From assembly GCA_963668175.1 (NCBI GenBank), contig OY764159.1, positions 2,784,001 through 2,848,000 on the forward strand: 64,000 nucleotides of DNA. The letters run 5' to 3'. Below the pieces are notes generated by a model. That model made no database searches. It had not been told where the DNA came from and worked only from the letters and a program-made list of their open reading frames with translations. Positions 12,147-37,211 of this stretch are shown here, piece after piece. The stretch's first letter is position 1, and every line of letters begins with the position of its first letter. The position numbers and the translations under genes were made by a program. This DNA is from Syntrophales bacterium (GTDB lineage Bacteria > Desulfobacterota > Syntrophia > Syntrophales > PHBD01).

Positions 12147-12191
12147 CAGGGATCATCCGGACGCGGATTAATAGAATCTGTGTTCCCCTTT

Positions 12192-12449: not shown

Positions 12450-12478
12450 TTGACAATATAACTATTATCCTCTATAAT
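12450..12478 (+). promoter_or_regulatory. Consensus sigma-70 promoter of effector/immunity block 1
   Basis: TTGACA-17 bp-TATAAT, exact consensus, upstream of 12594. Confidence 0.8.
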
Positions 12479-12593
12479 ATCGGTACGATAAAACACCTGA
12501 GCAAAATAGCAGGAAAGGCGTTCGGAACGATTCGTGTGATGAAGAGAGACGCAAGTTGAGGGAAAGGGTTCGGTCAGCGAAAGGCGATAAACG

Positions 12594-13148
12594 ATGAATT
12601 CTAAATTGAAGCGGCTGTTTGCATGGAAAAATCGAATTCTTAAGGGTTTCACGCTCTGGCCGACCATTGTGGTGCTATTGTATTTTTTAGAGAGGTGGGT
12701 TTTTTATTATCACGACTATGATTTTTTATTATTTGTCATATTTCTGTTCATATTTCCGGCAGTCTGTTTTATTTGTGCGCTGGTGTTGCTCGTAGTGAGA
12801 AAACCAAAGTCATCTTTATCCTTTCTTACACCCGCGTTGCTTGTGGTCTTTATGTTTTCTTCGTGGGGCGATCCTGTCAGAGATAATTACTACGCTTCAC
12901 GCCACTATGTTGAATTCCAAATCCAGAAAAGATTCTATTTCCCGGAGATGAACGAACCCGATAAGCTGCCCCCTTACAAAGAATGGCCTCTTAACAAGGC
13001 ACGGAGAACTTCAGAGTATACCATCATCTATAATTTGAAAGACTCTGTCGACGAAATAGAAAGACATAAGAAGTACATCAAGAATGGCTGCGGCTACAAT
13101 GTGACTGGAGTCGGCAAACACTTTTATATGCTGGCAGAATGTAAATAG
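12594..13148 (+). CDS. Membrane protein, putative immunity protein (copy 1)
   Basis: Three hydrophobic segments plus a soluble C-terminal domain; paralog of 13285..13862; sits directly before an effector stub. Confidence 0.7.
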   Translation: MNSKLKRLFAWKNRILKGFTLWPTIVVLLYFLERWVFYYHDYDFLLFVIFLFIFPAVCFICALVLLVVRKPKSSLSFLTPALLVVFMFSSWGDPVRDNYYASRHYVEFQIQKRFYFPEMNEPDKLPPYKEWPLNKARRTSEYTIIYNLKDSVDEIERHKKYIKNGCGYNVTGVGKHFYMLAECK

Positions 13149-13176
13149 AATGACAGAATAAAAGGAGGGCTGGAAG

Positions 13177-13281
13177 ATGGGACGGTACGGAACAGATCAT
13201 TTCTTTGTTAAAGATGAAGACAAAAAGGAAGTTGCGGCAAAGTATCTTAAAGACGCAAATGCACTCTGCGAAAGGCGATAA
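13177..13281 (+). pseudogene. Truncated 5' stub of effector E1 (MGRYGTDHFFVKDEDKKEVAAKYLKDAN…)
   Basis: First 28 codons are nearly identical to 13894.., same RBS; it ends at the duplication junction. Confidence 0.8.
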
Positions 13282-13284
13282 ACG

Positions 13285-13862
13285 ATGACTTCTAAATTGA
13301 GGCGTCTGTTTGCATGGAAAAATCGAATTCTTAAGGGTTTCACGCTTTGGCCGACCATCGTGATGTTGTCGTTTCTCTTGGAAGAGTGGGTATTTTATTA
13401 TCGCGACATTTATGATATCGGAATTCCTTTAGTCGTTATATTGGTGTTAATATTCCCGGCAGTCTGTTTTATTTGGGCGCTGGTTTTGCTCGGAAGAAAA
13501 AAAAACCGAAGTCGTCTTTATCCTTTCTTACCCCGGCATTGCCTCTGGTCTTTTTTTTATTTTCTCCATGGAGTGATCCTGTCAGAGATATTTTCTCCGA
13601 TTCGCGCCACTATGTTGAATTCCAAATCCAGAAAAGCTTTTATTTCCCGGAAATGAACGAACCCGATAAGCTGCCTCCCTACAAAGAATGGCTTATCAAA
13701 GAGCGTCATAATGTCTCTACGTATTCAATCGTTTACGATTCAAATGACTCCCTGAATGAGAGAGAAAAGAAAAAAGCAGAATTGCATGGCCCTCAACAAT
13801 GGGGTTACAGCATAAAGAAAGTTGGCAAACACTTCTACATGCTGCATGAATTTTATTATTAA
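13285..13862 (+). pseudogene. Putative immunity protein copy 2, frameshifted in an A9 tract
   Basis: ORFs 13285..13656 and 13473..13862 together align with 12594..13148; the frame changes at the A-run 13497-13505. Confidence 0.8.
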
Positions 13863-13893
13863 AACTGTTTTAAATTAGAAGGAGGGCTGGAAG

Positions 13894-15174
13894 ATGGGTA
13901 GGTACGGAACAGATCATTTCTTTGTTAAAGATGCAAACAAAAAGGACGTTGCGGCAAAGTATCTTAAAGACGCAAATGGAGACTATATTATGAACCGTTC
14001 AACCGGGCGGCCGTATGTCGTCCCGGCCGATTTTAATTTGGACGCAGTGATTGCAAAATACGAAGTCGATCCTCGGACGCTTCCCGATCTGGAAACAAGT
14101 ATGCAAGCACGCGGGGCGTCTTATGCAAAATTGTATGAGAATTTTCAACGCGGGCGGCCGGACGACTTGCAGAGATCCTATAATGGGAAAGTTGACGCCA
14201 CTTGGGTCAAGGACTTTCAGCCGGCAGCCAGCTACGTGTTCGGCGCGGCATGCGCCGCAGCAGGCTTACCCTTGTGGCAATGCAAAGCGGGCGGGGGGGG
14301 CTATAATCTTGGAACGAAAATCTTTGGAGATGGCCCCAAGAATAAAACGTCCGGCGAATTTGGCAACAATCCGGACAATGTTCAACACATCGAACAGGGC
14401 TACCGCAGTCAAACGTCTCCAGATGCTCCAAAGACGACCGGGAAATATGTTCCGGTGGAGGGGGGCGGCATCGATGCGGCGGTCAAAGCCGGGATCTATG
14501 CAGTCGAACCGGGCAATGTCCTTGGCGATATCGCAGCCAAATTTCATACCACCGTTCAAAAAATCATGGAGGCGAATCCCGATATCAAGAATCCGGATTC
14601 GATCCGCCCCGGACAGCGAATCGTATTGCCGAAAGACGACCCCTCCGGCCCCGCCGACAACAAGAAGGACCCCGATCCCGACCGGCAGGGCGCGACAGAC
14701 AAGGGAACGATCAATTCGCAACATAGCCAAAGCATCATCCATGATGGCGGGTTCACACAGATCGCCTCAAGCGCCGGCCCGGATGTTAGCGATAACACCG
14801 CTGCTTCCGCTCCTGCCGATGATGCGCCGGCGGGCTTTCCCGATGCTCCGTTGCGGCATGCGCTGGATGCGCTGGGCGTGAAGCCCCGCGATGTGCAATT
14901 CACCCCGGCGGAGGCGGACGATGAGAAAGAGACGCCGGACTCTTTCGACATCAGAGATAACGACACAGCGGAAAAAATCGGCTCTTATGCGGGAACCCCC
15001 ACCGGCTGCGAAATGACCGTGGGCGACAGGAAGGTCGTAATGGACCGGATGAGCGGTAATGACATTCACCTGCAAACGTATGCCAAAAACGACGATGGAG
15101 ATTTTGAACTCGTTGGGACAACGCGAATCGGCGACAACGACGGGATTACCGTGAGAAGGCCTTTTGCCGCATAG
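13894..15174 (+). CDS. Putative effector E1: possible Ntox44-like N-terminal domain, LysM, conserved C-terminal domain
   Basis: No signal peptide; LysM YAVEPGNVLGDIAAKFHTTVQKIMEANPDIKNPDSIRPGQRIVLP; shared C-terminal domain at 14848-15174. Confidence 0.8.
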   Translation: MGRYGTDHFFVKDANKKDVAAKYLKDANGDYIMNRSTGRPYVVPADFNLDAVIAKYEVDPRTLPDLETSMQARGASYAKLYENFQRGRPDDLQRSYNGKVDATWVKDFQPAASYVFGAACAAAGLPLWQCKAGGGGYNLGTKIFGDGPKNKTSGEFGNNPDNVQHIEQGYRSQTSPDAPKTTGKYVPVEGGGIDAAVKAGIYAVEPGNVLGDIAAKFHTTVQKIMEANPDIKNPDSIRPGQRIVLPKDDPSGPADNKKDPDPDRQGATDKGTINSQHSQSIIHDGGFTQIASSAGPDVSDNTAASAPADDAPAGFPDAPLRHALDALGVKPRDVQFTPAEADDEKETPDSFDIRDNDTAEKIGSYAGTPTGCEMTVGDRKVVMDRMSGNDIHLQTYAKNDDGDFELVGTTRIGDNDGITVRRPFAA

Positions 15175-15333
15175 TGCCGCGTCGTCCGGCGGACGCCGCC
15201 GGGCGGCGCACGGCAACGCCATGGCCGGTTAGCGGTTTTCCCCATTTGGGATACCCGGACGGCGGATGAAAGGAACCCGGGCCGGAAAAAAAGTGACGAG
15301 AGCGTGCAGGATACTAACTTTCGGAGGTGGAAG

Positions 15334-16179
15334 ATGGGACGTTTGAGGATGCCGGCCATATGCGCAGTAGCGCTTTTCATGACGATGTTGTTGTATTCGA
15401 CGGCGTCGGCCGCAGGCACCGACGTCGTTTACGTTGCGAAAGACATCGAATACGTCGGGAAAAAGACGTTACCTCTGCAGGAGGTCTTCGGCACGCCGGA
15501 GCCGTGGCATGTTACGGTCCAGGAAGATAAGGATATCGACGAATGGGATTACTTCATGGATCCCAAGGCCACGGACAGACCGGCGCGAATATGTTTCTGG
15601 GCCGATCCGGATAAGAAAGATCGGAAATGCGAAATTGCTGCGTTGAAATTATGCTTTCGTACCCCAAAGGGTCTCTCGTGCGAACCCACCTATACGTTCC
15701 AGTTTTTTGAGGACATGAAAGTTATCGATCTGAAAAAGGCCGGAAAGCCCCGCCAGGGCATTCTCTTTACCATAGTAAATAGAGGATATCACCTTAGCTG
15801 GGCGAGGCATCGACATCTCACCCTTTTCTCCATATGGGTTTACGACGAGAAAAAAGAAGCTTTCAAGAGAGCCCTTGAAGTCGCGCTCACGGAGCAGGGA
15901 GAGTTTAAATACGAGTTTCCCCCCTCCGCCAAGCTGGATGGCATCGCCGTCGGCGCCGACTTCTTTTGGGACATGAGCGATCCTGATGAGCATCGTTATG
16001 GTAAGCATTGGTATATCATCGAAATTTACAGATTGATGGGGAAGGGAATCTACAAATGGATCGGCGCGTATAGGACAGACAAAAAATACCAGAGTATGGC
16101 CGATAGCGAAGACAGTGTTATTGAACAGGAACTTGGCATCATCAGGAAGGTTGTAAGGAAAAAAGCAAAACAGAAATAG
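15334..16179 (+). CDS. Exported protein, putative immunity for E2
   Basis: RBS ggagg, Sec signal ending …STASA; stop lies 9 bp before E2. Confidence 0.7.
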   Translation: MGRLRMPAICAVALFMTMLLYSTASAAGTDVVYVAKDIEYVGKKTLPLQEVFGTPEPWHVTVQEDKDIDEWDYFMDPKATDRPARICFWADPDKKDRKCEIAALKLCFRTPKGLSCEPTYTFQFFEDMKVIDLKKAGKPRQGILFTIVNRGYHLSWARHRHLTLFSIWVYDEKKEAFKRALEVALTEQGEFKYEFPPSAKLDGIAVGADFFWDMSDPDEHRYGKHWYIIEIYRLMGKGIYKWIGAYRTDKKYQSMADSEDSVIEQELGIIRKVVRKKAKQK

Positions 16180-16188
16180 GAGTGAGAA

Positions 16189-17355
16189 ATGACAAGCAGC
16201 GAGTTCAAGCCGAGCAAATTCAAGGCAGAGGGAATTGAGGGGAACAGTATTGCAACATACTATGACTATGAGAACGGAACGAAACTGGAGATAAAGGGCG
16301 CGGTTCCTGCGGTGCGCTTTAATAACCCGGGCAATATCGCCTGCAATGATCTCAACGATAAGACGGGAAGATGGGTTTCAAGTCAGGGAGCGATCGGTTG
16401 CGCGCAAGGCCGGGCCGTCTTCCCGGACGTCGAGACGGGTTCTCAAGCGATGAGGAACAACCTTGAACGTAAATTTGGGGATTATACGGTTCGCGACATG
16501 CTCTTCGGCGAATACGAATACAACTATGGTCCCGATAAAGTGACACCCGTCAGCATCAAGAAAACGATCAGAGCCGGATACTGCCCCGAGTGGTACCCGG
16601 ACAAGAAGGGAGTCCTTCGGCGTCAGGATACGGAGTCTTACGCGCGGCTTCTCGAAAAGGGTTCCGATGCCAAGGAGACCGACGACCTCAAATCGTAGCC
16701 TATCAACGAACTCGGCAGCAAAATATTCGAGAAGGTTATTCAGAAGATGAAGACGCACGAAGGCTTCTTCAGCCCGCGTAATCAGGGAACGAAAACGTTT
16801 TACGAAAAAGATGGAAAAGTCATCAAACTGAACGAACTGGATAAGAATCTTCGGGAGGGCATTACTCCGGAAAAACCGACCATGATAGCGTATGCCAACG
16901 GCGTGCATACCGATGCGCCCGACGCGGGGAAGACTCTTGAGAATGTTGAAGCAGGATTATCTGGAAAACTGTTGCCCGCAAATATCGACACGGATGGAAC
17001 GGCCGGTTTGCTCGACGCCCCGAATGCTCCGTTGCGGCACGCGATGGCTGCTCTGGGATTGAAGCCCGAAGAAGTGCATATAACCCCGGCGGAGGCGGAC
17101 GATGAGAAGGAGACATCGGAATCCCTCGAGATCAGAGATAACGACACAGCGGAAAAAATCGGCTCTTATGCGGGAACCCCCACCGGTTGCGAAATGACCG
17201 CAGGCGACAGGAAGGTCGTGATGGACCGGATAAGCGGCAGCGACGTCAGCCTGCAAACATACGCCAAAAACGACGAAGGAGAATATGAACTCCTGGGGAC
17301 GACACGAATCGGCGACAACGACGGGGTGACCCTGCGACGGCCGTTTCCGGGATAG
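16189..17355 (+). pseudogene. Putative effector E2 (NNPGNI lysozyme-like domain + conserved C-terminal domain) split by an in-frame TAG at 16696-16698
   Basis: 16189..16698 and 16747..17355 are in the same frame; motif RFNNPGNI…F…G…Y-x-P…SYA…KTHEG spans the stop. Confidence 0.75.
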
Positions 17356-17359
17356 TGTT

Positions 17360-17742
17360 GTGATACAGGCGAATGAAGAGGAGGAAAAAATGGGGCCTGA
17401 AGAGGGAGACAAGACTCAAGAACGCATGAATGGTGAACCAAGGGAAAAAGAAGTCCCCAAAAGGGTTCTTCTAATGTGGAGACTGCTGTTGTTTGCTATC
17501 CTTGCTCTATTGTCATTACTCATGATTCAGATCTTTTATCGGTTCTGGTGTGTATCGATGATACCAACGATAGAGCGACATGACGGGCGATATAGCGGCA
17601 ATCCATGTGAATATGCTAGAGACGTCGGATCACGGACATCGCTTGTATGAAAATTAAGGCACGTATCCAGACGGCTTTAAGGAGTGATCACTTTTATCGA
17701 CAAATCGATCTGCAGTGGTTCGCTATGATGTGCAAAGGATAA
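17360..17742 (+). pseudogene. Decayed paralog of immunity gene 18133..18789
   Basis: Contains MIPTIER (vs MIPKIER), HRLY, and caaatcgatctgcagtggttc identical to the 3' end of 18133..18789; has stops and an internal deletion. Confidence 0.65.
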
Positions 17743-17842
17743 TACATTTTTCGGGTCAAGCAACAATGGTGCATGGGCATGCGTAATCCCGGTCATTGAT
17801 ATTCAGTGTATTGAAGAGAAGATTTAGGAAAGAGTGTAGAAA

Positions 17843-18073
17843 ATGAGTGGAGAGAAACAGACTACCATATGGGAACCAAAAACCTTTGATTGCATCAGAC
17901 AGAACAGTTCTATTTTTAAATCCGTTGCAGAACGGATAGGAATCCCCCCGGAAGCCCTCGCCGGCGCCATGGCAAGAGAGAATAACGCCTATAACCATCA
18001 TAGAGGCCGGGAAATATTCATGGACATATGGGCCTTAAAGTGTGTTCCGAACGTGGCGGCGTCATTTATTTAG
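17843..18073 (+). pseudogene. Truncated stub paralog of effector E3
   Basis: WEPKTFDCIRQNSSIFKSVAERIGIPPEALAGAMARENN matches the E3 N-terminus; ends after 76 aa. Confidence 0.8.
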
Positions 18074-18132
18074 GTTGCGGCAAGGGAGATTCACGGTAGG
18101 AGAAATCATAAAATCTCAGGGATGCCGAAATA

Positions 18133-18789
18133 ATGAAAATGAAGAAATCGCTGAAAGTTGTTCTGCTTTCGATAATAGGGGTCCTTTGGCTGGTCATCGT
18201 GTTGCTGTTGGCGCTTGTGACCGCCGTGGCCGATCATGAGATTGATCTTTACGCATTGTTAAGACCGCTCCCCAGCGATGACGAGATGATCGCGAATTTC
18301 TATGACAATAAGGATGACTTTGAGAAACTTGTCCAAATTTACTACACAGATCCGTCGAATCGATTTTATGGGTCTAAGGCGATGTCTACGCCGGAAGTGA
18401 AAGCCGTCATGAGGCGCGCAAAGGTCTATGGCATAGCAGGCGATGGGGATTTTTGGGTGCCTCCCGACCCTTACAATGAAGAGGCGCGCGATCGGAGTTT
18501 TCGTTCAGGTGAATTAGAAAGGCATCGTGACGGTATCGACTTTCATTACAAACATAAGCGCGTAACAGTCGGAATTGAGAAGTTCGACGATCTGCATAAA
18601 TATTACTATTACGCACCGATGATACCAAAAATAGAGCGCTACCCCGGCGAGCCGTACGATGTATTATTGACGCCTACTCATCATCATCGATTGTATAAAA
18701 GCCTGGACAGGTGGCCTGCCGATCTCCTCCCGCCCGATTGCGTTTACCGGCAAATCGATCTGCAGTGGTTCATTATGGTGTGTCGATAA
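18133..18789 (+). CDS. Membrane-anchored protein, putative immunity for E3
   Basis: N-terminal TM anchor then a soluble domain; directly upstream of E3. Confidence 0.72.
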   Translation: MKMKKSLKVVLLSIIGVLWLVIVLLLALVTAVADHEIDLYALLRPLPSDDEMIANFYDNKDDFEKLVQIYYTDPSNRFYGSKAMSTPEVKAVMRRAKVYGIAGDGDFWVPPDPYNEEARDRSFRSGELERHRDGIDFHYKHKRVTVGIEKFDDLHKYYYYAPMIPKIERYPGEPYDVLLTPTHHHRLYKSLDRWPADLLPPDCVYRQIDLQWFIMVCR

Positions 18790-18876
18790 TAATATTTTCA
18801 GAGCGTGCAACAATGGTTCACGGACATTTGTAAGATAAATTATGACGAAGCGAATTGGATGAAGGAGTTTGGAAAA

Positions 18877-20454
18877 ATGGCCGAAAATGAGAAGTATACC
18901 AAATGGGAACCGAAAACCATGGATTGCATCAGACAAAACAGTTCCATCTTTAAATCCGTTGCCGCCCGGATGGGAATCTCCGCGGAAGCCCTCGCCGGCG
19001 CCATGGCGAAAGAGAACAACCAATACCAACTCAATACAGCGGTGGAAGTATTCAAGGACAGATGGGCTTTAGGAACGATATCCGGTGAAATAGTCGACCA
19101 TGCTCAATGGTCGGCCCAATATGACGCGGTGAAGAAGTCGAACTGGATAGATAACGCAGACAGATTAAGAAAGATAAGAAACCCCATATTGGTTGACCTC
19201 GGCCCTTTCAACCTTCAGGGTGCAACCGCCATCCGGGCCTTGATTAGATATATCCAAGCCAATCCCCATTCGGATCCTTTTGATCTGAAACAGTATCAGG
19301 GAGACTATGCAAAATTCCTGTCCACCATAGCAGGTCCCGATGCGGCGCCGTGGAATACTCTGAACGCCGAAGAGAGCGTAAGGGTGAATGCAATCGTCTG
19401 GGGCATGCAGATAAAACAAGCCCAGGACTGGTTCGAAAAGAAGAAACGGGGCGACGAGCGGTTCGCTAAACTTTGGGACGGGAAGCCGCAGAAGGAAAAA
19501 GACGCATTCTACGCGCAGTGGTGCTTTTTCGGACCTCGAAAAATGGAAGAGAGGTTCGTGGATAATATTAACGACAGCAAGCATCGTGGGACATACAAAC
19601 CGGAACTCGGTGAAGGCGGTTCGGACGTTCATAAGAATGCGGGGGCTATCGGGATCGCGATGGACAATTTCGGCTACGCGGCTGAAGGCCAGAATTCAGA
19701 CTCGGAAAAGACGGCATCCGCCGCCGGCGCTCCCGCCTCCCCATCCAACGCACGTATTACATATAACACCGACGGCACGGTCACCGTCAACAAGGGCGGC
19801 ACGCTCTGGGAAATCTGCGAAGAGCAGAGGAAAAAGGGCAATCCGATCACCCCCGACGATTTGAGGTTGAAAAACAAGAACATCGAGGATGTGGACGATA
19901 CGAGGATTCCCGTCGGCACGAAATTGGTCATTCCCAGACGCCAAGAAGCTGACTCCGCCATTAGCACTGGCGACAAATCTAACGCCGCTGACTATCAGGG
20001 CCATCGTGAAGATCGTAGAAATCTTTTCGGCGGCAGCGATTCAAGCCGCGGAGATATTTACAATACGATTGAAAATGAAGATGACAATCCCCGGGTCATC
20101 TCTAGTGACCCTTCCGTCAGTTCTCCATTGCAGCACGTAATGGATGCGCTGGGAGTGGCGTCCAAAGATGTGCATTTAATCCCGGACGGGGACAATGAAA
20201 ATCCAATGCCGGGGTCCTACAGCATTATGGATAAGAGTACATCGAAAGAAATCGGTTCTTGTTTGATGACTACGACCGGTTGCGAAATGACCGCAGGCGA
20301 CAGGAAGGTCGTGATGGATAAGATAAGCGGCAACGACGTCAGCCTGCAAACATACGCCAAAAACGACGAAGGAGAATATGAACTCCTGGGGACGACACGA
20401 ATCGGCGACAACGACGGGATTACCGTGAGAAGGCCTTTTGCAGGGCTAGCCTGA
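18877..20454 (+). CDS. Putative effector E3: lysozyme-like N-terminus, LysM-like domain, conserved C-terminal domain
   Basis: RBS aaggag; ALAGAMAKEN…DLGPFNLQ lysozyme-like spacing; GGTLWEIC…IPVGTKLVIP; shared C-terminal domain at 20125-20454. Confidence 0.8.
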   Translation: MAENEKYTKWEPKTMDCIRQNSSIFKSVAARMGISAEALAGAMAKENNQYQLNTAVEVFKDRWALGTISGEIVDHAQWSAQYDAVKKSNWIDNADRLRKIRNPILVDLGPFNLQGATAIRALIRYIQANPHSDPFDLKQYQGDYAKFLSTIAGPDAAPWNTLNAEESVRVNAIVWGMQIKQAQDWFEKKKRGDERFAKLWDGKPQKEKDAFYAQWCFFGPRKMEERFVDNINDSKHRGTYKPELGEGGSDVHKNAGAIGIAMDNFGYAAEGQNSDSEKTASAAGAPASPSNARITYNTDGTVTVNKGGTLWEICEEQRKKGNPITPDDLRLKNKNIEDVDDTRIPVGTKLVIPRRQEADSAISTGDKSNAADYQGHREDRRNLFGGSDSSRGDIYNTIENEDDNPRVISSDPSVSSPLQHVMDALGVASKDVHLIPDGDNENPMPGSYSIMDKSTSKEIGSCLMTTTGCEMTAGDRKVVMDKISGNDVSLQTYAKNDEGEYELLGTTRIGDNDGITVRRPFAGLA

Positions 20455-20764
20455 TGCCGGGACAGGCACAGGCCGTCTCAATATTCGCCGCGGCTCAGAA
20501 AGAATGCTCGGTTCAAAGGGATATGTGAAAATGAAAAGCAAGGTATCTCCGCATCGCATTCTTTTGTCTGTAAAGGGCAAATGACCTCATTGTTTTGGCC
20601 CCTGGGGGCTTACCAAAGTTTTTGGAACACCCGCGACGATGGTATTTTACCGAATCAATAATTTACCCCGATACGAGTCGAATTGATGGAAAAATGAATA
20701 TGGGAGGAGCAACGAGAGATTTTTTTATTCGTTGATCAAGCGGGAAGGCATAGGAGGGAAAAAA

Positions 20765-22258
20765 TTGAAAACGAAAGCGATCTTGATAGTGCTGATCTGT
20801 ATTGCCGCCTGCGCCGGCTATCAACAACCTGCCAGGGCATCCGGGGACGCCGCCGTTACATGCCGGAGCGCCAAGGAGTGCGTCGATCGGGGAATTCGCA
20901 AATTCAATGAACGGCAGTACGACTCGGCCATCGCCTATTATACGCGGGCCATCGCGCTTGATCCCGAATATGCCGCCGCGTACGATCGCCGCGCGAATGC
21001 CCATGCCCTCAAACAGGACTATCGCAGCGCCATTGCCGATTATACCGAGGCCATTAGAATCGATCCCGGGTTTGCCGAGGCCTACCATGGGCGCGGGCTT
21101 GCCTACGCGAAAACAGGGGATAGCGACCTCGCCATTGCCGATTACACGGCGGCCATCGACCGCAAGTGGCGGGATGTCGTTCAGTCCTACTATTATCGCG
21201 GCAATGCCTATTATAATGTGGGGAAGAACGATCTCGCCGTTCGCGATTACGATGAAGTCCTTCGCATCGATCCTAAAGCTGCCAACGCCTGCTTCAATCG
21301 CGGCCTTGCATACAAGAGGATGGGGGACGACGCCAGGGCCGCTGCGGATTTCGACAGGGTGATCGCCCTCGATCCGAAACACGCGGAGGCGTACTATTGG
21401 CGCGGCGCTATCTTTCAGAAAAGAAAGGATTACGACCGTGCCGTCGCCGATTTCAGCCAGGCCCTTGCCGTCAATCCGCAGCACGCCAAAGCCCGTCTCG
21501 TCCGGGGGAATGCCTATGCCGAAAAAGGAGACTATAACACCGCCATTGCCGATTATACCCAGGTCATTCTGATGAATCCCGCTTTTGCAGATGCAAGTCT
21601 TAACCGCGGACGCGTTTACATGGAAACCGGGGACGATGCCAGGGCCGTTGCCGATTTCACAAGGATGATCACCCTCGACCCGAAGCACGCGGAGGCGCAC
21701 TATTTGCGCGGACGTATCTATCAGAAAAGAAAGGATTACGACCGTGCCATCGCCGATTTCAGCCAGACCATCGCCTTCAATCCGCAGCACGCGAAAGCCC
21801 GGCTCGCCAGGGGGAATGCCTATGCCGAAAAAGGCGACTATAACAACGCTATCGCGGATTATACCGAGGTCATCCGGATGAATCTTCCGGATAAGTACAA
21901 GGTGGGGGTTATCGTTAATCGCGGCCTTGCATACGAGAAAATGGGGGACGATGCCGGGGCCATTGCCGAGTTCACGAGCGCCATCGCCCTCGATCCGGAA
22001 AATGCGGCCCCATACTATGCCCGCGGGCGCAGCTATCTTAAAATATGGGATTTCGACCGCGCCTTTACGGATTTCAATAAGGCCATTGCCGTCAATCCAC
22101 AGTATCGGGAAGCTTACATGGCCCGCGGCGCTTCCCTCCTGGGGAAGGGGAAATGTGCCGAGGCATGGCGGGACGTGAGGCACGCAGAAGGACTGGGCGA
22201 GATACCAAATCCAAACTTCTATAAGTTCCTCAACGAAAAATGCCCGCCGCAACAGTAG
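20765..22258 (+). CDS. Exported TPR-repeat protein
   Basis: About 13 34-aa TPR units (RG-x-AY…A-x-ADY/F…P); N-terminal signal or lipoprotein-like sequence; TTG start after ggaggg. Confidence 0.9.
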   Translation: MKTKAILIVLICIAACAGYQQPARASGDAAVTCRSAKECVDRGIRKFNERQYDSAIAYYTRAIALDPEYAAAYDRRANAHALKQDYRSAIADYTEAIRIDPGFAEAYHGRGLAYAKTGDSDLAIADYTAAIDRKWRDVVQSYYYRGNAYYNVGKNDLAVRDYDEVLRIDPKAANACFNRGLAYKRMGDDARAAADFDRVIALDPKHAEAYYWRGAIFQKRKDYDRAVADFSQALAVNPQHAKARLVRGNAYAEKGDYNTAIADYTQVILMNPAFADASLNRGRVYMETGDDARAVADFTRMITLDPKHAEAHYLRGRIYQKRKDYDRAIADFSQTIAFNPQHAKARLARGNAYAEKGDYNNAIADYTEVIRMNLPDKYKVGVIVNRGLAYEKMGDDAGAIAEFTSAIALDPENAAPYYARGRSYLKIWDFDRAFTDFNKAIAVNPQYREAYMARGASLLGKGKCAEAWRDVRHAEGLGEIPNPNFYKFLNEKCPPQQ

Positions 22259-22516: not shown

Positions 22517-23374
22517 ATGGCAGCAGAAAACAAGAAGAACGATAATGAAAAGACGTTAAAAAAGGGATTTGAAATATTTAATTTTGTGAAAGATATCGCA
22601 AGCAAGACCGGTGACATCCTTGCGACCGGAAATTCCACCGTAAAATTAATCAAAATGGGAGTGGACGGTTCAATGACGGTACTACAGAGTATTCCAAAGT
22701 CGCTACTGGAAGGAGAATTAGTTCCTATTGGCCTTGTAAAAGAACTTGGCACATGGGGTGCTTCCTCCGCAGTCGGCGAGACGATCATTGTAACGGCGGG
22801 CGGTTTGGCATCCGCCGGAGCAGCGACCATTTTAGGGGCGGCAACGCTGACCGCAGCGGCAGGCGCGCTATACGGTGCTTTATGGCAAAAGGTGTATGAG
22901 CATTCGAAGGAGAACCCTATATGGGAAGGCGCGCCCGAGATGAAATACGACGGTATGTATCTGCATGATCCCTCCAAATCCGGAAACGAGATACCAAATG
23001 AAGATGCCATTATGAAGAACTATTCCCTGAACGATCCCGGCAAGCCATTGAAGCATGCATTGACCGCGCTGGGATTGAAACCCGACGAGGTGCATCTAGC
23101 TCCGGCGGCGAGCAATGGGAATTCGACGTCGGAAGCCCTCGCTATAAGGGATAAGGACACATCGGAAAAAATAGGCTCCTGCGTGATGACGCCTGGCGGC
23201 TGCGAAATGACCGCGGGCGACAGGAAGGTCGTGATGGACCGGATAAGCGGCAGCGACATTCATCTGGAAACGTATGCCAAAAACGACGATGGAAAATATA
23301 AACTCCTGGGGCAGACAAGAATCGGCGACAACGACGGGATCACCGTGAGAAGGCCGTTTACGGGGCTCGCCTGA
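22517..23374 (+). CDS. Putative effector E4: Gly/Ala-rich hydrophobic N-terminal region + conserved C-terminal domain
   Basis: IIVTAGGLASAGAATILGAATLTAAAGALYGALW; shared C-terminal domain at 23045-23374; no signal peptide. Confidence 0.78.
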   Translation: MAAENKKNDNEKTLKKGFEIFNFVKDIASKTGDILATGNSTVKLIKMGVDGSMTVLQSIPKSLLEGELVPIGLVKELGTWGASSAVGETIIVTAGGLASAGAATILGAATLTAAAGALYGALWQKVYEHSKENPIWEGAPEMKYDGMYLHDPSKSGNEIPNEDAIMKNYSLNDPGKPLKHALTALGLKPDEVHLAPAASNGNSTSEALAIRDKDTSEKIGSCVMTPGGCEMTAGDRKVVMDRISGSDIHLETYAKNDDGKYKLLGQTRIGDNDGITVRRPFTGLA

Positions 23375-23604
23375 TGCCGGGACAGGCACAGGCCGTCTCA
23401 ATATTCGCCGCGACACTGCATGAAAATTCGGTTCATGGAGGATGAAACGTGAAGCAGCCGTTTCCCGAATTCGGGGTACCGCATCCCCTCGTACAGGATG
23501 CGGTACGTAATGATCTATTGTTTCTTCTCATAGTGTTGGGAATTCCGGGAATTCGCGCAGTCGGAATGCTATGCTGGCATTTCAGGATACGGGGAGGCAC
23601 GTCA

Positions 23605-25647: not shown

Positions 25648-25673
25648 GATGCAGCATAAGTTAGGTTAAAGGA

Positions 25674-27230: not shown

Positions 27231-27956
27231 GCAAACCTCCTGCCTTTCAATCGATGTTGGTGGTGAATGATCCCGCCTGCGCGGCGGTAAGTCTAATCCG
27301 TTGGTGAACCATTCTGATTGCCGGGGTATCTCCTTTCGTTGACGATGATTGCTTCAATGCTTGCGCGATTGATCCATCCGTCGCTCCGTCTGCGGTCCCC
27401 TCATGAAACAGCCACCCGCTATTCACCACCACCGCAAAGAGGTTCTTTGCTGCCGATGCCCCTTTGAAAACGTCCCCGCGCGGATGCCCCTAACATCCCC
27501 GCGGCCCTGAAATGATCTCACGGGTAAAAAAGCGGTCCCGGAAAACACAAAACCCCGCCTCTGGAAAGAGAGACGGGGTTTCGAATATTCCTGCATAACG
27601 CGCTTTCGTAAAGACGGTTCTGGAGCCGGTTAACGATGTCCACTTTAATGCCTTTTCTGACATATTAAAGCAAAATGCACAAAATTGCCAAGACAATTTT
27701 TCGCCCCCTGCCGGCGTGACCGGCGAAAAAGAGCGATCCATTTTCCGGCCGGTTCGTTACAATTGCCGATCATACGGGACTTTCGAAGGCGGGTACGGCC
27801 AAGGCCGGACGTAACCGGTTATCCGGGAAACCGCGAAAACGTCCGGTTCCATCTATCGCTTCAAAAACAGAAATGCTGGAATATTGTAATGCAAGATGAT
27901 TCTTCTGCAATTCCCTTAATATCAGTATGTTATGATTATATTATACCATATTCTTA

Positions 27957-27985
27957 TTGACATCTATAGGAAAATATATTATAAT
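27957..27985 (+). promoter_or_regulatory. Consensus sigma-70 promoter of WG-repeat/E5 operon
   Basis: TTGACA-17 bp-TATAAT, exact consensus. Confidence 0.8.
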
Positions 27986-28055
27986 TTCGGCATGATAACA
28001 CAGAGCGGCCGGACAGGACAGAAGGCGTTCGGACCGTTGGCTGTCTAAAAGGGGG

Positions 28056-29168
28056 ATGCACAAGATGAACGGAAGAAATACAGGGGCGAACAGGATTATA
28101 CCAATCATTTTGATCGTATGGGTATGCATCGCTGTGTCCGCAGGCGACGCAGGATCAACCGACAGCTATTTCCCTTGCCCCGTTTATGTCAACGCAGGTC
28201 TCAAGGGCAAGCTCCGTCACGTGAAAAAATGGGGTTATATGGACATCCATGAAAAGATCGTCATCAAGCCGCGTTTTAAGGAAGCGTGGAGTTTCAGCGA
28301 AGGGCTGGCCCATGCGATGAATGCCAGATATAAATACGGCTTCATCGATCTTAAGGGGAATTGGGCCGTCAAGCCGCAATTCGACAACGTGAGAAGTTTC
28401 CGTGAGGGCATGGCGGCGGTTTCAATCAAAAGGAAATATGGGTTTGTCGATAAAACGGGCCGGCTCGTCGTCCCGCTTGTCTATGATAACGCTATGGACT
28501 TCCGCGAAGGCCTGGCCCTAGTTGCGGACAACGACAAATGGGGTTTTGTAGATAAAACGGGCCGGGTGGTCGTCCCGCTCATATACGACGAACATGTCTC
28601 GTGCTTCCGCGAAGGTCTGGCCTGTTTTAAGGAAAACAAGAAATACGGTTTCATGGATAAAAAAGGGCAGGTTGTCATTCCGGCGCAGTTCGACAGGGTC
28701 TTGTATGGCTTCAGCGAAGGCCTGGCAGGCGTTCAGATTAACGGGAAATGGGGTTTCATCGACCGCTTCGGCCGGATCGTCATCGAGCCGAAATTCGACA
28801 GGGCCGGGAGGACGGTCATGTTCCGGGAAGGGCTTGCCGCCGTGAAAATCGACGGCAAGTGCGGCTTCATCGACAAGACGGGAGCTATCCGGATCAAGCC
28901 CGATTACAGTTATGCGTTCGACTTTTCCGAGGGGTTCGCGACGGTGACTTTTGATGATGGTACGGACGCTTATATCGACAAATCGGGAAACATCGTCATC
29001 AGGATTGAGGAAAATAAGGGGACTGCATATTGGGAAGGCGATTTCCGCAAAGAAGGCGTAGCGAAAATATGTTTTAACGATTCCAAATATTCGGCAGAGG
29101 ATTGCGGATTCATCAATCGTCAGGGGATATTTGTCATTCAACCTAAATACAATTCCATTCATAATTAA
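28056..29168 (+). CDS. WG-repeat exported protein, putative immunity for E5
   Basis: Repeated F(S/R)EGLA-x-V…K(W/Y)GF(I/V)DK-x-G units; signal peptide; ends 24 bp before E5. Confidence 0.9.
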   Translation: MHKMNGRNTGANRIIPIILIVWVCIAVSAGDAGSTDSYFPCPVYVNAGLKGKLRHVKKWGYMDIHEKIVIKPRFKEAWSFSEGLAHAMNARYKYGFIDLKGNWAVKPQFDNVRSFREGMAAVSIKRKYGFVDKTGRLVVPLVYDNAMDFREGLALVADNDKWGFVDKTGRVVVPLIYDEHVSCFREGLACFKENKKYGFMDKKGQVVIPAQFDRVLYGFSEGLAGVQINGKWGFIDRFGRIVIEPKFDRAGRTVMFREGLAAVKIDGKCGFIDKTGAIRIKPDYSYAFDFSEGFATVTFDDGTDAYIDKSGNIVIRIEENKGTAYWEGDFRKEGVAKICFNDSKYSAEDCGFINRQGIFVIQPKYNSIHN

Positions 29169-29192
29169 TTTCTTTGACCAAGGAGGAATAGA

Positions 29193-30419
29193 ATGGCGGG
29201 AACAATTTACAGCAATTTGCAGACCCAAAAACAGAAAGACTGGTACCGTGGCATTGCTCTATTCGGAGACAAGAAAGAAATACCGCTGGATGTGATCAAT
29301 GCCGTGCTCCTGCTCGGGAATCTCGAATCTCGCGGTTTTAGACCGGAGGCGGAGAGCGGTACCGGGGCTTCGGGACTGTTTCAGTATATGGAAGGAAGGT
29401 GGACGGACATCACAGACAAAAATAAAAAGAATAAATTGTATTACGATACTTACAACCAAATGATCGATTGGGGATACAATCCAGCGAGACGCGAGAGGGA
29501 GAATCCGGCCGATCAGGTAATCGTCGTATACGCGGAGGTAGCGAGTTATACGAAGGAATTCAATTCAGCGACTAAACCCCGTGGAAAACGCAACTCGGAT
29601 TATAAGAATGCGTGGAACGCTTACGATAAGGCATGTAAAGGATTGGGGAAGGACTGCCCCACCGATCCCTATGAGAGATACATCCTGTTTGTCCAGGCGG
29701 CTCACCACGGACCGAGCAATATTCAGGAAGTGATAACCGGCTGGAAAAAGCAAATACTACCCAATATCAAGGACAATTTAGAATTTCTGAAATCGAAACG
29801 CAAAGAATGGAACCTGAAGGTCTCCCAGGACGATACGGAGGCTGAAACCGACAAGGTTGCCGAGGCGGCAGAACGGGATTCCGGGCGGACAGCGTCGGCT
29901 GCGCAACCGGACGATGCGTATTCGACCGAAGACAGGAAGAGAAAAGACCTCGCTGCGGGAGACGACGCCGAAGCTGAAACGGCGAGAAGAGGCGACGATG
30001 CGGGCGACCGGGATACCGACGATTCCATGAACAGACAGGGCGGCGTTCCCGCGACGGCCGCGAACGGTTCGTCCGTGGGCATTCCCGATGCTCCATGGCG
30101 GCACGCGATGGACGCGCTCGGAGTAACGTCCAGTGAGATACATTTAACCCCAGCGGATAACAGGAATTTAACGTCGGACTCCTTCGAGATCAGAGATAAC
30201 GACTCATCGGAAAAGATCGGTTCTTGTATGATGACTCCCACCGGCTGCGAAATGACAGCGGGCGACAGGAAGGTCGTGATGGATAAGATAAGCGGCAACG
30301 ACGTCAGCGTGGAAACATACGCCCAAAACGACGATGGAGAATATGAACTCCTGGGGACGACAAGAATCGGCGACAACGACGGCATAACGGTGAGAAGGCT
30401 GTGGACGGGGTTTGCGTGA
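29193..30419 (+). CDS. Putative effector E5: SLT/lytic transglycosylase-like domain + conserved C-terminal domain
   Basis: LESRGFRPEAESGTGASGLFQY matches the SLT ES…GA-x-GLFQ motif; acidic linker; C-terminal domain at 30093-30419. Confidence 0.82.
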   Translation: MAGTIYSNLQTQKQKDWYRGIALFGDKKEIPLDVINAVLLLGNLESRGFRPEAESGTGASGLFQYMEGRWTDITDKNKKNKLYYDTYNQMIDWGYNPARRERENPADQVIVVYAEVASYTKEFNSATKPRGKRNSDYKNAWNAYDKACKGLGKDCPTDPYERYILFVQAAHHGPSNIQEVITGWKKQILPNIKDNLEFLKSKRKEWNLKVSQDDTEAETDKVAEAAERDSGRTASAAQPDDAYSTEDRKRKDLAAGDDAEAETARRGDDAGDRDTDDSMNRQGGVPATAANGSSVGIPDAPWRHAMDALGVTSSEIHLTPADNRNLTSDSFEIRDNDSSEKIGSCMMTPTGCEMTAGDRKVVMDKISGNDVSVETYAQNDDGEYELLGTTRIGDNDGITVRRLWTGFA

Positions 30420-30909: not shown

Positions 30910-31281
30910 GTGCGTATCCTTGCCCGGCTCCGGCCGTTTGTGAGGCAAGGAAATAATCATGGAAGGACCTTGCCGGCGCGCACGGGCGGGACTTCCCGTA
31001 CCGCTGTCGTCCGCATCATCCCGTAATCGTTCGATGGCCGGAACGGACGAATGCCCGGCGGCGGCTTCCCCGCACCGATGCCGCTGGTGATGAGGCATCG
31101 ACGCCGATTCGCATTCACCCTGCATCCGACGCCGGAACGGGCCAAAGGATCGCCCCTCGCGGGAAGGCGGCGGATAGGCATGGCCGCCTTTTCCGCATTT
31201 CGGAATAGCAGGGCAGGGCCGTTTCGCCGGTCTCGCCCATCGTGCCCGTCCCGCGGCGGGAAAGGGCATTGCTTGCCCGAC

Positions 31282-34011: not shown

Positions 34012-34445
34012 TCGGTGCCTCCTTCAGCTTGACATGATGCATCGCCGGCGGGATCGATCCGCGGTCTCGACGGCGCACGGCGACGGCAAAACCGGCCGTG
34101 CCGCAGTGCGTAACTCCTGGGGCGGTTACGCCGGCGACTTGCCGGCATGGTATCATATTAAGCCGATTTTGTAAGCTCCTTAAGCTGCCGGCACATGTCG
34201 CAGACGAGGGCTCCCGACCGGCAGGGCGGGAGCGCGTTGTTGCGCCGGAGGGGCTCTCCGCGCTTGTCCGGCTGACGGCGGGTACGGCCCATGCCGGCGG
34301 TAACCGGTTATCCGGATAACCGCGAAAACGTTCGGTTCCGCCTATCGCTTCCAAAACAGACATGCAGGCAATTTGTAATGCATGATGATTCTTTTGCAAT
34401 TCCCCTAATGTCGGTATGTTATAATTATATTATACCTTATTCTTA

Positions 34446-34474
34446 TTGACATTAATGGTAAAATATATTATGAT
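34446..34474 (+). promoter_or_regulatory. Sigma-70 promoter of WG-repeat/E6 operon
   Basis: TTGACA-17 bp-TATGAT inside a ~290-bp region paralogous to about 27810-28100. Confidence 0.75.
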
Positions 34475-34544
34475 ATCGATATGATAACATGGCAATGCCG
34501 GACAGGACAGAAGGCGTTCGGACCGTTGGCCGTTTATAAGGGAG

Positions 34545-35864
34545 GTGAACAAGATGAACGGAAGAAATAGATGGGCGAACAGGATTATACTCATTATTCT
34601 GATTACATGGGCATGCCTCTCTATCCCCGTGAGCGAAGCAGGAGCTGACGAGAGCTCTTTCCCTTGCCCCGTCTTCCTGAAAAGCGATGGCCGCAATATT
34701 CCCGGCATTGGGAGATACCGGTGGGGATACATCGATATCAAGGGGAACATCGTCATCAAGCCGCGTTTTGTTGATGCGGTGCATTTTCGCGAAGGCCTGG
34801 CGGCGGTGATCGTCAAGGGTAAAGGATATGGATATATAGATGTGAAAGGAAAGTTTGTCATCGATCCGGCTTTCGATCGGGCACAGGATTTCTGGAAGGG
34901 GATGGCCCGCGTCAAGATGAAGGGCAAATGGGGCATCATCGACAAGACCGGGCGGTTCGTCATTCCGCCCGCATACGATCATGTCAACGTTTTCAGGGAA
35001 GGCATGGCCGCGGTTATGGCCGGTGACAAGTGGGGCTTCGTCGACGAGACGGGACGGATTGTCGTTCCGCCCTTATACAAGCAAGTTGAATATTTCAACG
35101 AAGGCATGGCCGCGGTTATGGTCGGCGACAAGTGGGGCTTTGTAGACAAGACGGGGCGGACGGCGATTGAACCGGTGTTTTCATCGGCAGGAAGTTTCAG
35201 CGAAGGCTGCGCGGCCGTAATGATCGACAAAAAAGCAAAATTCATCAATCGTCTCGGGGAAAAAACGATTGCCCGGGAATATGAGGGTGCGGGAGGTTTC
35301 AACGAAGACATGGCCGCAGTCAAGGTTAACGGCAAATACGGCTTCATCAACAGAGCGGGCGACATGGTTATTCAACCGGAATTCGATGAGGTTCATTTTT
35401 TTCATAATGGCCTGGCGGCGGTCAGGGTTAACGGCAAATACGGCTTCATCAACAGAGCGGGCGACATGGTTATTAAACCCGAATTCGACGACTATGAATC
35501 GTTTCATGAGGGCCTGGCGGCGGTTGTTATAAAAGAAAAATGGGGCTTTGTTGACGTGACGGGCAGGCTGGTCGCCGCGCCGCAGTTCGATCGAGTACGG
35601 AGTTTCAGCGAGGGGCTGGCCGCGGTATACGACGGCAGCGATGAAATCCGTTATATCGACAAGTCCGGAAAAATCGTAATCCGCAATAAGCATAAAATCA
35701 CCGACGGCGGCTGGTTGGGAAATTTCGGAAAAGACGGTGTGGCCAAAGTCTGTACCGACTTTACCAGCAATGGTTATTTGGGATGCGGATTCATCGACAG
35801 ACAGGGAAACTTTGTCATCAAGCCGAAATTTACATCAACGAGTTATGGACGAGAAAAAATTTAA
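34545..35864 (+). CDS. WG-repeat exported protein, putative immunity for E6
   Basis: About ten WG repeats, signal peptide, paralog of 28056..29168. Confidence 0.9.
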   Translation: MNKMNGRNRWANRIILIILITWACLSIPVSEAGADESSFPCPVFLKSDGRNIPGIGRYRWGYIDIKGNIVIKPRFVDAVHFREGLAAVIVKGKGYGYIDVKGKFVIDPAFDRAQDFWKGMARVKMKGKWGIIDKTGRFVIPPAYDHVNVFREGMAAVMAGDKWGFVDETGRIVVPPLYKQVEYFNEGMAAVMVGDKWGFVDKTGRTAIEPVFSSAGSFSEGCAAVMIDKKAKFINRLGEKTIAREYEGAGGFNEDMAAVKVNGKYGFINRAGDMVIQPEFDEVHFFHNGLAAVRVNGKYGFINRAGDMVIKPEFDDYESFHEGLAAVVIKEKWGFVDVTGRLVAAPQFDRVRSFSEGLAAVYDGSDEIRYIDKSGKIVIRNKHKITDGGWLGNFGKDGVAKVCTDFTSNGYLGCGFIDRQGNFVIKPKFTSTSYGREKI

Positions 35865-35876
35865 GGGAGCAAGGAA

Positions 35877-37211
35877 ATGGCAGCATTATACGACAGGTTG
35901 GACGCGGAACAGAAGAAGGTTTACGACAAAATCGTTGCGTTCGGAAAATCGAAAGAGTTTTCAACGGAAGATATCAATATCGCCCTGCAGATCGCCTATG
36001 TGGAGTCCGAATTTGGAAAATTGAAGGACAAAGAAGGTGAAGATGCACCAAAAGGCCTCTATCAATATTCCGAAAGACACTGGAAGGACAGACAACGCCC
36101 CGGCTGGTCGCAAGTCGGCAAGGAAGTCAAAGATATTCTTTCCTCCTGGGGTTATACGAAAGATCCGAAACGTCCTGAAGGTAATACAGATCCTGAATAT
36201 GAAAAAGGCACCGTCAACATTTTTCAGGAAAAGCAGGACGATCAGATAGCGATGTTCTATGCAGAGCTGAAAATTTACACGGATAGATTCAAGAAAGGCG
36301 TATCCGATCCGGCTTATAATAAAGTCTGCCGGAATATGCAATGCCCGACGGATCCATACAGCCGGAAAGCCTTGTATATTGAGGCGACGCACCACAGTGC
36401 CGATAATATCGGGGAAGTTCTCAACGGCTGGAAAAAGAAAGTCCAGCCCAATTTGATGGATAATTTGAATTATTTAAAAAAGAACGCAGTCAAGTGGGAG
36501 AAGAAAATCTCCCAGGACGATACGGAAGCTGCAACAGACAAGGTCGCCGAGGCGACGGAGCGGGATTCCGGGCGGACAACCCCGGCCGGGCAACCGGTCG
36601 ACGCGTATTCAACCGAAGACGGGACGAGAAAAGACCTCGCTGCGGGAAACGAGGCCGAAGCCGAAACGGCGAGAAAAGGCGACGATGCTGGCGAAAGGGA
36701 TGCCGACGATTCCACGAACAAGCGAGGCGGCGCTTTCAAGTCTGCCTCGAACGGTTCGTCCGTGGGCATGCCCGAAGCTCCATGGCGTCATGCGATGGCG
36801 GCGTTGGGCGTGAAGCCCGGCGATGTGCAATTTACAGACTGTTGAAAAACGTCCATCTGTTGCGTTGCGCCGTAAGCCTCGTCATTCGACATACGTCTAT
36901 GTATACCTCATTCCTCGGCTTTTGCGCGCCTTACATCTGGACATTTTTGAACAGCCTGCGTGCCCCCTGCATAGTAGGGGGACGCGCCCCCCGAATGGGG
37001 AGTTCAAAATCGAGTTTTTCAACAAGCATTTTACGCAGACGGCTGCGAAATGACCGCAGGCGACAGGAAGATCGTGGTGGATAAGATAAACGACTCCGAC
37101 GTGTATGTGGAAACATATGCCAAGAACGACGAAGGGGATTTAAAGCTTCAGAAGACCGTGAGAATCGGCGACAACGACGGGATAACGTTGAGAAGGCCGT
37201 TTGCCGCTTAG
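35877..37211 (+). pseudogene. Putative effector E6 (SLT-like), C-terminal domain disrupted by an insertion
   Basis: VESEFG…KGLYQY motif; paralog of E5; ORF stops at 36845 inside the insertion; the domain resumes at 37041 (GCEMTAGDRK…RRPFAA*). Confidence 0.82.
36835..37027. mobile_element. MITE-like non-autonomous insertion
   Basis: Inverted repeats cagactgttgaaaaacgtcca (36835) and tggacatttttgaacagcctg (ends 36958), 18/21 match; second end-like tttttcaacaagc at 37015-37027; interrupts E6. Confidence 0.7.

Follow-up and report, generated by a model that had tools for sequence, protein, structure and literature searches.

The DNA described here, called the window throughout, is a stretch of 64,000 nucleotides (nt) from a Syntrophales bacterium (GCA_963668175.1, contig OY764159.1, positions 2,784,001-2,848,000, forward strand). 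Between 13.9 and 37.2 kb, a domain of about 110 amino acids (aa) occurs six times in plus-strand genes. We refer to it as the CTD (C-terminal domain) and to the six genes concerned as E1 to E6. A first-pass annotation of this region had proposed that they encode the effectors of a polymorphic effector-immunity system, and we retain the term effector for their products and the term partner for the exported or membrane proteins encoded beside them. The genes that make up the six modules are the following.

12594-13148, plus strand: partner A, a 184-aa membrane protein with hydrophobic segments within residues 36-75
13894-15174, plus strand: E1, intact, 426 aa; Ntox44-like domain, LysM (202-246), linker and CTD
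14836-15171, plus strand: CTD of E1, located by tblastn with the E3 CTD
15304-16179, plus strand: partner B, 291 aa; hydrophobic at 14-36 followed by ASAAG, signal-peptide-like; ends 9 nt before E2
16189-17355, plus strand: E2, split; N-terminal domain at 16189-16695, middle part and CTD at 16747-17355
18133-18789, plus strand: partner C, 218 aa, with an N-terminal membrane anchor (hydrophobic at 9-27, Kyte-Doolittle value 3.2)
18877-20454, plus strand: E3, intact, 525 aa; N-terminal domain without known family, LysM (E 3.6e-4), linker and CTD
20116-20451, plus strand: CTD of E3 (tblastn)
20732-22258, plus strand: TPR lipoprotein-like protein, 508 aa; TPR_1 at E 2e-82; N-terminus ...LICIAAC
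22517-23374, plus strand: E4, intact, 285 aa; Gly/Ala-rich hydrophobic (glycine-zipper-like) part and CTD (23036-23371)
23449-24507, plus strand: exported protein downstream of E4; hydrophobic segments at 23-41 and 59-77, no family match
28056-29168, plus strand: WG-repeat exported protein, 370 aa; WG_beta_rep at E 1e-91; hydrophobic at 14-32; ends 24 nt before E5
29193-30419, plus strand: E5, intact, 408 aa; helical N-terminal domain, acidic disordered linker and CTD (30081-30416)
34545-35864, plus strand: second WG-repeat exported protein, 439 aa; WG_beta_rep at E 1e-115; paralog of the gene at 28056 (50% identity)
35877-37211, plus strand: E6, a disrupted paralog of E5; open reading frame (ORF) 35877-36845, C-terminal half of the CTD at 37041-37211

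Copies of the CTD were located by tblastn against the window using the last 112 residues of E3 as query. Five full-length copies were obtained, ending at 15171, 17352, 20451, 23371 and 30416 (E 3e-45 to 8e-75). The sixth covers only half of the domain, at 37041-37208 (E 1e-23); a further short match, to the N-terminal portion of the domain, was detected at 36777-36833 (E 0.05). By tblastn, the full-length copies are 64-69% identical to that of E3, and an alignment of all five shows 63-68% identity to its first sequence and 47 invariant columns. Pairwise ratios of non-synonymous to synonymous substitution (dN/dS) between the copies in the window range from 0.26 to 0.65, indicating a protein domain under purifying selection and more than repeated DNA. 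The first-pass annotation had described six genes ending in a common domain. The core of this observation is borne out, as the CTD is present at six places, but only E1, E3, E4 and E5 are intact while the E2 and E6 genes are broken.

Export signals were judged by a Kyte-Doolittle hydrophobicity scan, which for the effectors covered the first 70 aa. An N-terminal hydrophobic segment was present in none of the seven effector pieces, whereas it occurred in all seven partners (genes starting at 12594, 15304, 18133, 20732, 23449, 28056 and 34545). By this hydrophobicity measure, the initial description holds: the effectors appear to lack signal peptides, and the product encoded upstream of each is exported or located in the membrane. 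The gap between partner and effector gene measures 9-87 nt in five modules and 258 nt between the TPR gene and E4, so that coupling is weaker in the latter case. The product of 23449-24507 could be the real partner of E4. The TPR gene itself contains internal tandem repeats of approximately 306 nt at 21235-22102 (75-82% identity, repeat families D3 and D7).

The whole window was also scanned for sigma-70-type consensus promoters (TTGACA-N17-TATAAT, at most one mismatch). Three sites were found:

12450-12478, plus strand: promoter upstream of partner A; perfect, 12/12 consensus matches
27957-27985, plus strand: promoter upstream of the WG/E5 module; perfect consensus
34446-34474, plus strand: promoter upstream of the WG/E6 module; near-consensus, one mismatch

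These are the only sites of this quality in the window, and all three precede modules; the number expected by chance is 0.08.

The C-terminal domain and the variable N-terminal parts

The CTD was not recognised in the first pass, and our searches of sequence and fold libraries (Pfam, NCBIfam, PADLOC, PHROGs, PDB sequences, Foldseek) did not identify it either. A Pfam search at E values up to 5 returned zero families, with the same result for NCBIfam, PADLOC and PHROGs, and a CTD profile run against PDB sequences at E up to 10 gave 0 matches. Likewise, no matches were obtained by tblastn against plasmids and phages, and a protein atlas search gave no usable match. The Pfam models Por_Secre_tail, RTX (HemolysinCabind) and PAAR did not match the CTD. 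A PAAR-like nature of the domain was considered separately and rejected, since hhalign against a PAAR-like protein of Pseudoalteromonas gave a probability of 0.3%. The AlphaFold2 model of the CTD, based on 30 sequences, consists of one helix followed by eight strands (mean pLDDT, the predicted local distance difference test score, 81). Foldseek with this model against PDB and BFVD returned nothing at E ≤ 0.001; the best, non-significant matches were TarM in PDB (E 0.025) and an unnamed viral protein in BFVD (E 0.1). The domain contains only 1-2 Gln per 112 residues.

We found no paper on such a domain, which is weak evidence of absence as an unnamed family is not reached by word search, and none on antibacterial effectors in Syntrophales, Smithella or relatives, which is again weak evidence of absence. 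A term search of a comparative-genomics paper on Smithellaceae (PMC13685792) found no mention of secretion system, type VI or type IV secretion system (T6SS, T4SS), toxin or conjugation.

A profile search of 1.84 billion representative proteins yielded 14 CTD clusters at E ≤ 1e-10. All of these are close relatives; one is E5 of the window and two are short fragments. The weakest profile matches, P0015 and P0016, are PA14 and cadherin repeat proteins and were treated as spurious. Clustering at 90% gave 25 CTD proteins of 156-499 aa, the majority on short metagenome contigs. One CTD protein encoded outside the window, P0020, has 456 aa, is E1-like and contains LysM. Its longest contig is given as 4.57 Mb, as for the proteins of the window itself, and the genome probably holds at least this one further member, a seventh CTD protein. 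In members from elsewhere, the CTD is preceded by SLT (P0002, P0009, P0026) or NlpC/P60 (P0003) domains with clear matches.

The N-terminal parts of 30 CTD family members fall into eight classes. On a maximum-likelihood tree of the CTD with 30 rows, from which the fragment P0010, E6 and two short fragments were excluded, the N-terminal class switches 20 times, while 200 shuffles of the labels gave a mean of 20.8 changes (range 17-24). The number of changes is close to the mean for shuffled labels, which indicates that N-terminal classes are scattered randomly over the tree and that domain shuffling has occurred. Consistently, the alignment shows one CTD subtype bearing differing toxin types and vice versa, and linkers are also common to different N-terminal classes. 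This pattern is the signature of a polymorphic system whose constant module lies at the C-terminus. The N-terminal types had been described as unrelated, which holds for 19 of 21 hhalign pairs among seven classes (probability ≤ 23%); the two strong pairs align only through a common LysM-containing middle region or the acidic linker.

In line with the first-pass annotation, the N-terminal parts correspond to toxin-type or cell-wall-type domains, namely Ntox44-like, PAAR-associated and Imm11-associated types in the window and SLT or NlpC/P60 elsewhere. Kinship to toxins was found for three types. Residues 18-138 of E1, whose LysM is matched by Pfam at E 1.8e-12, align to P0038 (BLASTP E 2e-13), a protein named polymorphic toxin type 44 protein that matches Ntox44 (PF15607) at 30.4 bits with a cut-off of 24. 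E1 itself has no Ntox44 Pfam match, and its paralog P0020 scores 17.3 bits, below that cut-off. In Ralstonia megaplasmids, an E1-like domain forms the N-terminus of a hypothetical protein of 1,947 aa. Excerpts of PMC3482391 place Ntox44 among the polymorphic toxin domains, with trafficking by type II (T2SS), T6SS and type VII (T7SS) secretion systems and no known immunity family.

The E2 N-terminal domain resembles the N-terminus of an unannotated 374-aa ORF of Pseudoalteromonas piscicida (locus L005, 7935-9059; hhalign 94.8%, E 5e-8, 86 columns), which carries a Tox-PAAR-like domain at 204-306 (E 5e-37). At this locus, the PAAR-like ORF is followed by an ORF of 1,075 aa without Pfam match. 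The N-terminal domain of E3, which has a single close relative (P0034), resembles a Microbulbifer plasmid protein, P0041 (hhalign 96.5%, E 8e-10). The gene order on this plasmid (locus L004, 6441-8885) is HlyC-type acyltransferase, Imm11 protein, 108-aa protein and E3-type protein. The E3-type gene and an IS6 transposase gene overlap at the 3' end of the former. Nearby are a fragment annotated as an HNH polymorphic toxin and a DUF4304 gene. The partner proteins of the window had no match at E ≤ 0.1 in the distant loci L004-L006. In other bacteria, these toxin-type domains occur in other trafficking contexts (a PAAR-like domain, polymorphic-toxin neighbourhoods). By the usual reasoning from domain architecture, the CTD would here take the position of a module for trafficking or recognition.

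E4 has an internal hydrophobic segment at 90-108, two relatives (P0008, P0012) and no Pfam match; by analogy only, its Gly-rich N-terminal part may be membrane-active. E5 and E6 had been called SLT-like. The motifs ES...GL(F/Y)Q are visible in both (ES...GLFQ in E5), but Pfam SLT (PF01464) reached only E 0.01-0.035, below cut-off, in two of seven members. E5 itself scored E 0.01 against SLT and E 0.0017 against a PHROG endolysin family. The full-length model of E5 is poor (pLDDT 55.5, with pLDDT < 50 for the linker 207-300) and gave no significant fold match; the best lytic-transglycosylase match to this pLDDT-55 model was MltE at rank 48 (E 0.56). The designation SLT-like is therefore kept as a lead. 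Searches of PDB sequences with the E2 and E3 family profiles gave 0 matches each, and the E5 family gave two irrelevant ribosomal matches. No match was obtained for the N-terminal parts of E4 and E5 in plasmids or for those of E2 and E3 in phages.

Duplicated, disrupted and remnant modules

Partner type had been reported to track N-terminal type, and three duplications bear this out. WG/E5 is duplicated as WG/E6; a copy of A with the start of E1 stands beside A'/E1; and a remnant of C with the start of E3 stands beside C/E3. Every duplication takes the partner together with the start of the effector. One of them comprises the whole WG/E5 unit (27785-30419), which recurs as WG/E6 (34274-37211). 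The remnants in the array are the following.

13177-13263, plus strand: E1-like remnant, first 29 codons (tblastn 86%, E 8e-11; DNA repeat D15, 94%)
13285-13862, plus strand: partner A', a frameshifted second copy of A (tblastn in two frames, 13285-13518 and 13524-13850, 61-69%)
17360-18046, plus strand: degenerate module with partner-C-like C-terminal pieces (17610-17736) and the first 68 codons of an E3-like gene (17843-18046), detected by tblastn and DNA repeats D10 and D19
34161-34268, minus strand: radical SAM remnant, last 36 codons (tblastn 53%, E 1e-6; repeat D16), at the left edge of WG/E6

Based on its position at the end of the radical SAM gene, the WG/E6 module appears as if placed there by insertion. 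It is flanked by diverged direct repeats (34163-34259 and 37262-37358, 73% identity) that correspond to the 3' terminus of this gene and to its remnant copy.

Two effector genes are disrupted in different ways. In E2, an in-frame TAG at 16696-16698 separates the ORFs 16189-16698 and 16747-17355. Four uninterrupted relatives of 397-426 aa (P0006, P0018, P0019, P0021) have K (two) or T (two) at this position, and the TAG is most simply explained as a nonsense mutation; general scans of the window ORFs revealed no pyl genes that would suggest a pyrrolysine reading. The ATG at 16747, past the TAG, could still yield a CTD-bearing protein of 202 aa. In E6, the ORF stops at 36845, and the middle of the CTD gives way to approximately 200 nt unrelated to E5 (about 36835-37040). 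Near the ends of this insert lies a perfect inverted repeat of 11 nt (36840-36850 and 37014-37024), and the similar short words TTTACAGAC and TTTACGCAGAC occur just outside it. The insert, unique in the window, looks like a miniature mobile element.

Ordinary genes are interspersed between the modules and encode an FAD oxidoreductase, a Pat-like GNAT/acyl-CoA synthetase and a radical SAM enzyme. The second of these shares 76-87% identity with proteins encoded in metagenome-assembled genomes of Desulfomonilaceae, Syntrophales and Smithella. The host is reasonably regarded as Desulfobacterota-like, and the earlier label of an anaerobic deltaproteobacterium-like host can stand. Three relatives found through the Pat-like gene showed no synteny past this gene, so that the borders of the island cannot be set by comparison. 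The G+C content at 12001-14000 is 0.43, compared to 0.49-0.65 in the rest of the window, so that the left end of the first cluster of modules stands out as foreign in composition. Scanning the window with Rfam and for tRNA genes gave no matches. Unrelated to the modules, the window also encodes two small PEP-CTERM proteins on the minus strand (51919-52509 and 57908-58534) and a protein with FecR and LysM at 145-1824.

Proposed effector-immunity arsenal, known systems and rival explanations

We consider the region to be a lineage-restricted arsenal of polymorphic antibacterial effectors and immunity proteins with reversed polarity, in which the CTD serves as delivery handle and the upstream partners as immunity proteins, and regard this as having a little better than an even chance of being correct. 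The sequence analysis itself shows the layout of the modules, the export signals, the novel CTD, the toxin kinship of three N-terminal types, the shuffling of domains and the duplication of modules; secretion, toxicity, immunity and the role of the CTD are the steps that we infer. The region would consist of six partner-effector modules and the remnants of others. Each effector would begin with a variable toxin: an Ntox44-like domain, two domains without assigned activity, a Gly-rich membrane-active part and possibly a lytic-transglycosylase-like domain. In many cases a peptidoglycan-binding LysM domain and an acidic, disordered linker come next, and the constant, beta-rich CTD is last in every effector. 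The effectors would be synthesised in the cytoplasm without Sec signals, and the CTD would act as the constant handle that is recognised or loaded by a dedicated delivery machine encoded outside the window. The toxins may then act in the envelope of neighbouring cells, while the exported or membrane protein encoded upstream in each module would be the cognate immunity protein and shield sister cells. Partner A is the candidate immunity protein for the E1 type and the WG protein at 28056 that for E5. The combination of exported partners with signal-less effectors would fit delivery in a single step to the envelope of a neighbour, where immunity proteins of the periplasm or membrane protect; this logic is established for periplasm-acting effector-immunity pairs of the T6SS and the Xanthomonadales T4SS (X-T4SS).

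The closest layout is that of the X-T4SS effectors and immunity proteins (X-Tfe/X-Tfi), to which the system had been likened. As in the modules described here, in which antibacterial action is putative, the N-terminal antibacterial domain varies and is in many cases a peptidoglycan hydrolase accompanied by domains that bind the wall; it precedes a conserved C-terminal domain of approximately 110-120 aa, no Sec signal is present, several pairs occur per genome, and the adjacent gene has an export signal (seven of seven partners here, with immunity being putative). The X-Tfi immunity gene is located upstream of X-Tfe. Pfam holds a model of XVIPCD, the conserved domain of these effectors, whereas the CTD has no Pfam match at all and no PDB fold match at E ≤ 0.001. 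The XVIPCD fold has two helices, three strands and an unstructured Gln-rich tail, as described in excerpts of PMC8740702. Thus, the likeness holds for the layout but not for relatedness, given the single helix and eight strands of the CTD, its low Gln content and its lack of a Pfam family. In addition, XVIPCD binds the all-alpha domain of VirD4, while virB and virD4 are absent from the window, and the host is Desulfobacterota-like and does not belong to the Xanthomonadales, Burkholderiales or Neisseriales. The earlier interpretation is supported with respect to the novel CTD, the toxin- and wall-type N-termini, the co-inherited exported partners and the host; its comparison with XVIPCD holds for the layout only.

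Other systems share individual traits with the modules. Like T6SS effectors that act in the periplasm, the signal-less effectors are paired with periplasmic proteins (putative immunity proteins in our case), and the E2-type domain of P. piscicida precedes a Tox-PAAR-like domain, so that, as here, the toxin type comes first and the delivery module after. However, the CTD is dissimilar to PAAR, and no vgrG, hcp, PAAR or adaptor gene is present in the window. C-terminal sorting domains of the type IX secretion system (T9SS) and signals of the type I secretion system (T1SS) also represent C-terminal elements that direct export of otherwise unrelated proteins. T9SS substrates bear N-terminal Sec signals, in contrast to the effectors, which lack an N-terminal hydrophobic segment and a Por_Secre_tail match. 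T1SS substrates differ in that the CTD has no RTX match and window scans found no ABC/MFP transporter genes near the effectors. With the classical polymorphic toxins Rhs, CdiA, LXG and MafB, as presented in excerpts of PMC3482391, the modules have in common one constant trafficking module recombined with unrelated toxin domains, adjacent immunity genes (putative here), orphan or remnant modules and an Ntox44-type domain (Ntox44-like in E1). Here, by contrast, the toxin type is N-terminal and the constant module C-terminal, the partner is encoded upstream instead of downstream, and the constant module is small and belongs to no known family.

Several observations weigh against the proposed arsenal. 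Family scans of the window ORFs identified no genes of a secretion system. No relative of known function was detected for the CTD, and the role assigned to it is argued solely from position and analogy. Its family is tiny (14 representative clusters), and a pattern scan of 185,579 species genomes gave 46 pattern matches of which 0 were confirmed. The links of E1-type and E2-type domains to other bacteria are distant (about 30% identity), the likeness of E5 and E6 to SLT is below threshold, and the E5 model has no significant fold match. No known immunity family was recognised in partners A, B and C, with A and C having no Pfam or NCBIfam match and B belonging to no known family, and the partner of E4 is ambiguous. 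Finally, with E2 and E6 broken and the second copy of partner A frameshifted, the array may be decaying.

Given these points, other explanations were considered. The proteins may be toxins in which the CTD is a receptor-, surface- or wall-binding module, released like bacteriocins by lysis, in vesicles or by an unspecific route. The compact, beta-rich CTD does resemble many binding modules, wall binding is part of the design of E1 and E3 as seen from their LysM domains, no machine is encoded nearby, and the top fold match, although weak and not significant (E 0.025), is the beta-sheet domain of the wall teichoic acid glycosyltransferase TarM. The parts of bacteriocins that bind receptors tend to diversify, though, while the CTD is the most conserved part of these proteins and matches no carbohydrate- or wall-binding family; next to LysM, another module for wall binding would be superfluous, and partners in the periplasm or membrane are more easily reconciled with injection into kin envelopes than with free release. 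We regard this explanation as unlikely. Less probable still, to our judgement, is a housekeeping or developmental function in wall remodelling, in which the effectors would be autolysins, the CTD a domain for localisation or regulation and the exported partners regulators or scaffolds. LysM, SLT and NlpC/P60 are indeed typical of autolysins, and WG-repeat and TPR proteins are generic interaction scaffolds. However, autolysins need a periplasmic route and the effectors lack signal peptides, the Ntox44-like, PAAR-associated and Imm11-associated types point to conflict systems, and random shuffling, pseudogenes, remnants and a patchy, tiny distribution are atypical of housekeeping genes.

An origin from remnants of prophage lysis genes or genes for virion-associated lysins, with the CTD as a structural or wall-binding domain of a phage, appears very improbable. 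It would account for the matches of E1, E3, E5, P0002, P0003 and P0005 to PHROG families of endolysins, transglycosylases and tail lysins, but these matches are restricted to the LysM, SLT and NlpC stretches and none falls on the CTD, which also has no phage record by tblastn and no viral fold at E ≤ 0.001. In addition, phage structural, integrase or terminase genes were not found in the window, and an array of six paralogous modules, every one of them accompanied by an exported partner, speaks against such remnants.

Possible meaning for antagonism in syntrophic Desulfobacterota

What is new at this locus is a constant C-terminal domain without a relative in sequence or fold, the proposed polymorphic effector-immunity organisation being of a kind already known. 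The reach of the finding is limited by the very narrow distribution of the family, and every functional step is inferred. On several occasions, whole effector repertoires and the way in which the respective machines choose substrates have come to light through constant marker domains such as XVIPCD, MIX, LXG and PAAR. The CTD is joined to at least eight kinds of N-terminal modules and occurs in slow-growing syntrophic anaerobes, in which antagonism has hardly been studied. If the CTD is a delivery tag, it could serve as bait for the machine and as a search key for more toxins and immunity proteins. The modules would then also represent an independent second instance, next to the T4SS of Xanthomonadales, of polymorphic effectors with reversed polarity.

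A further proposal, which we put forward as tentative and rather doubtful, is that syntrophic Desulfobacterota deliver interbacterial toxins by a route not described before, with the CTD as its substrate-recognition domain and either a new machine or a known machine with unprecedented recognition. In that case, the window would contain the first effector-immunity arsenal of this route, and the constant tag would offer a way to trace the machine.

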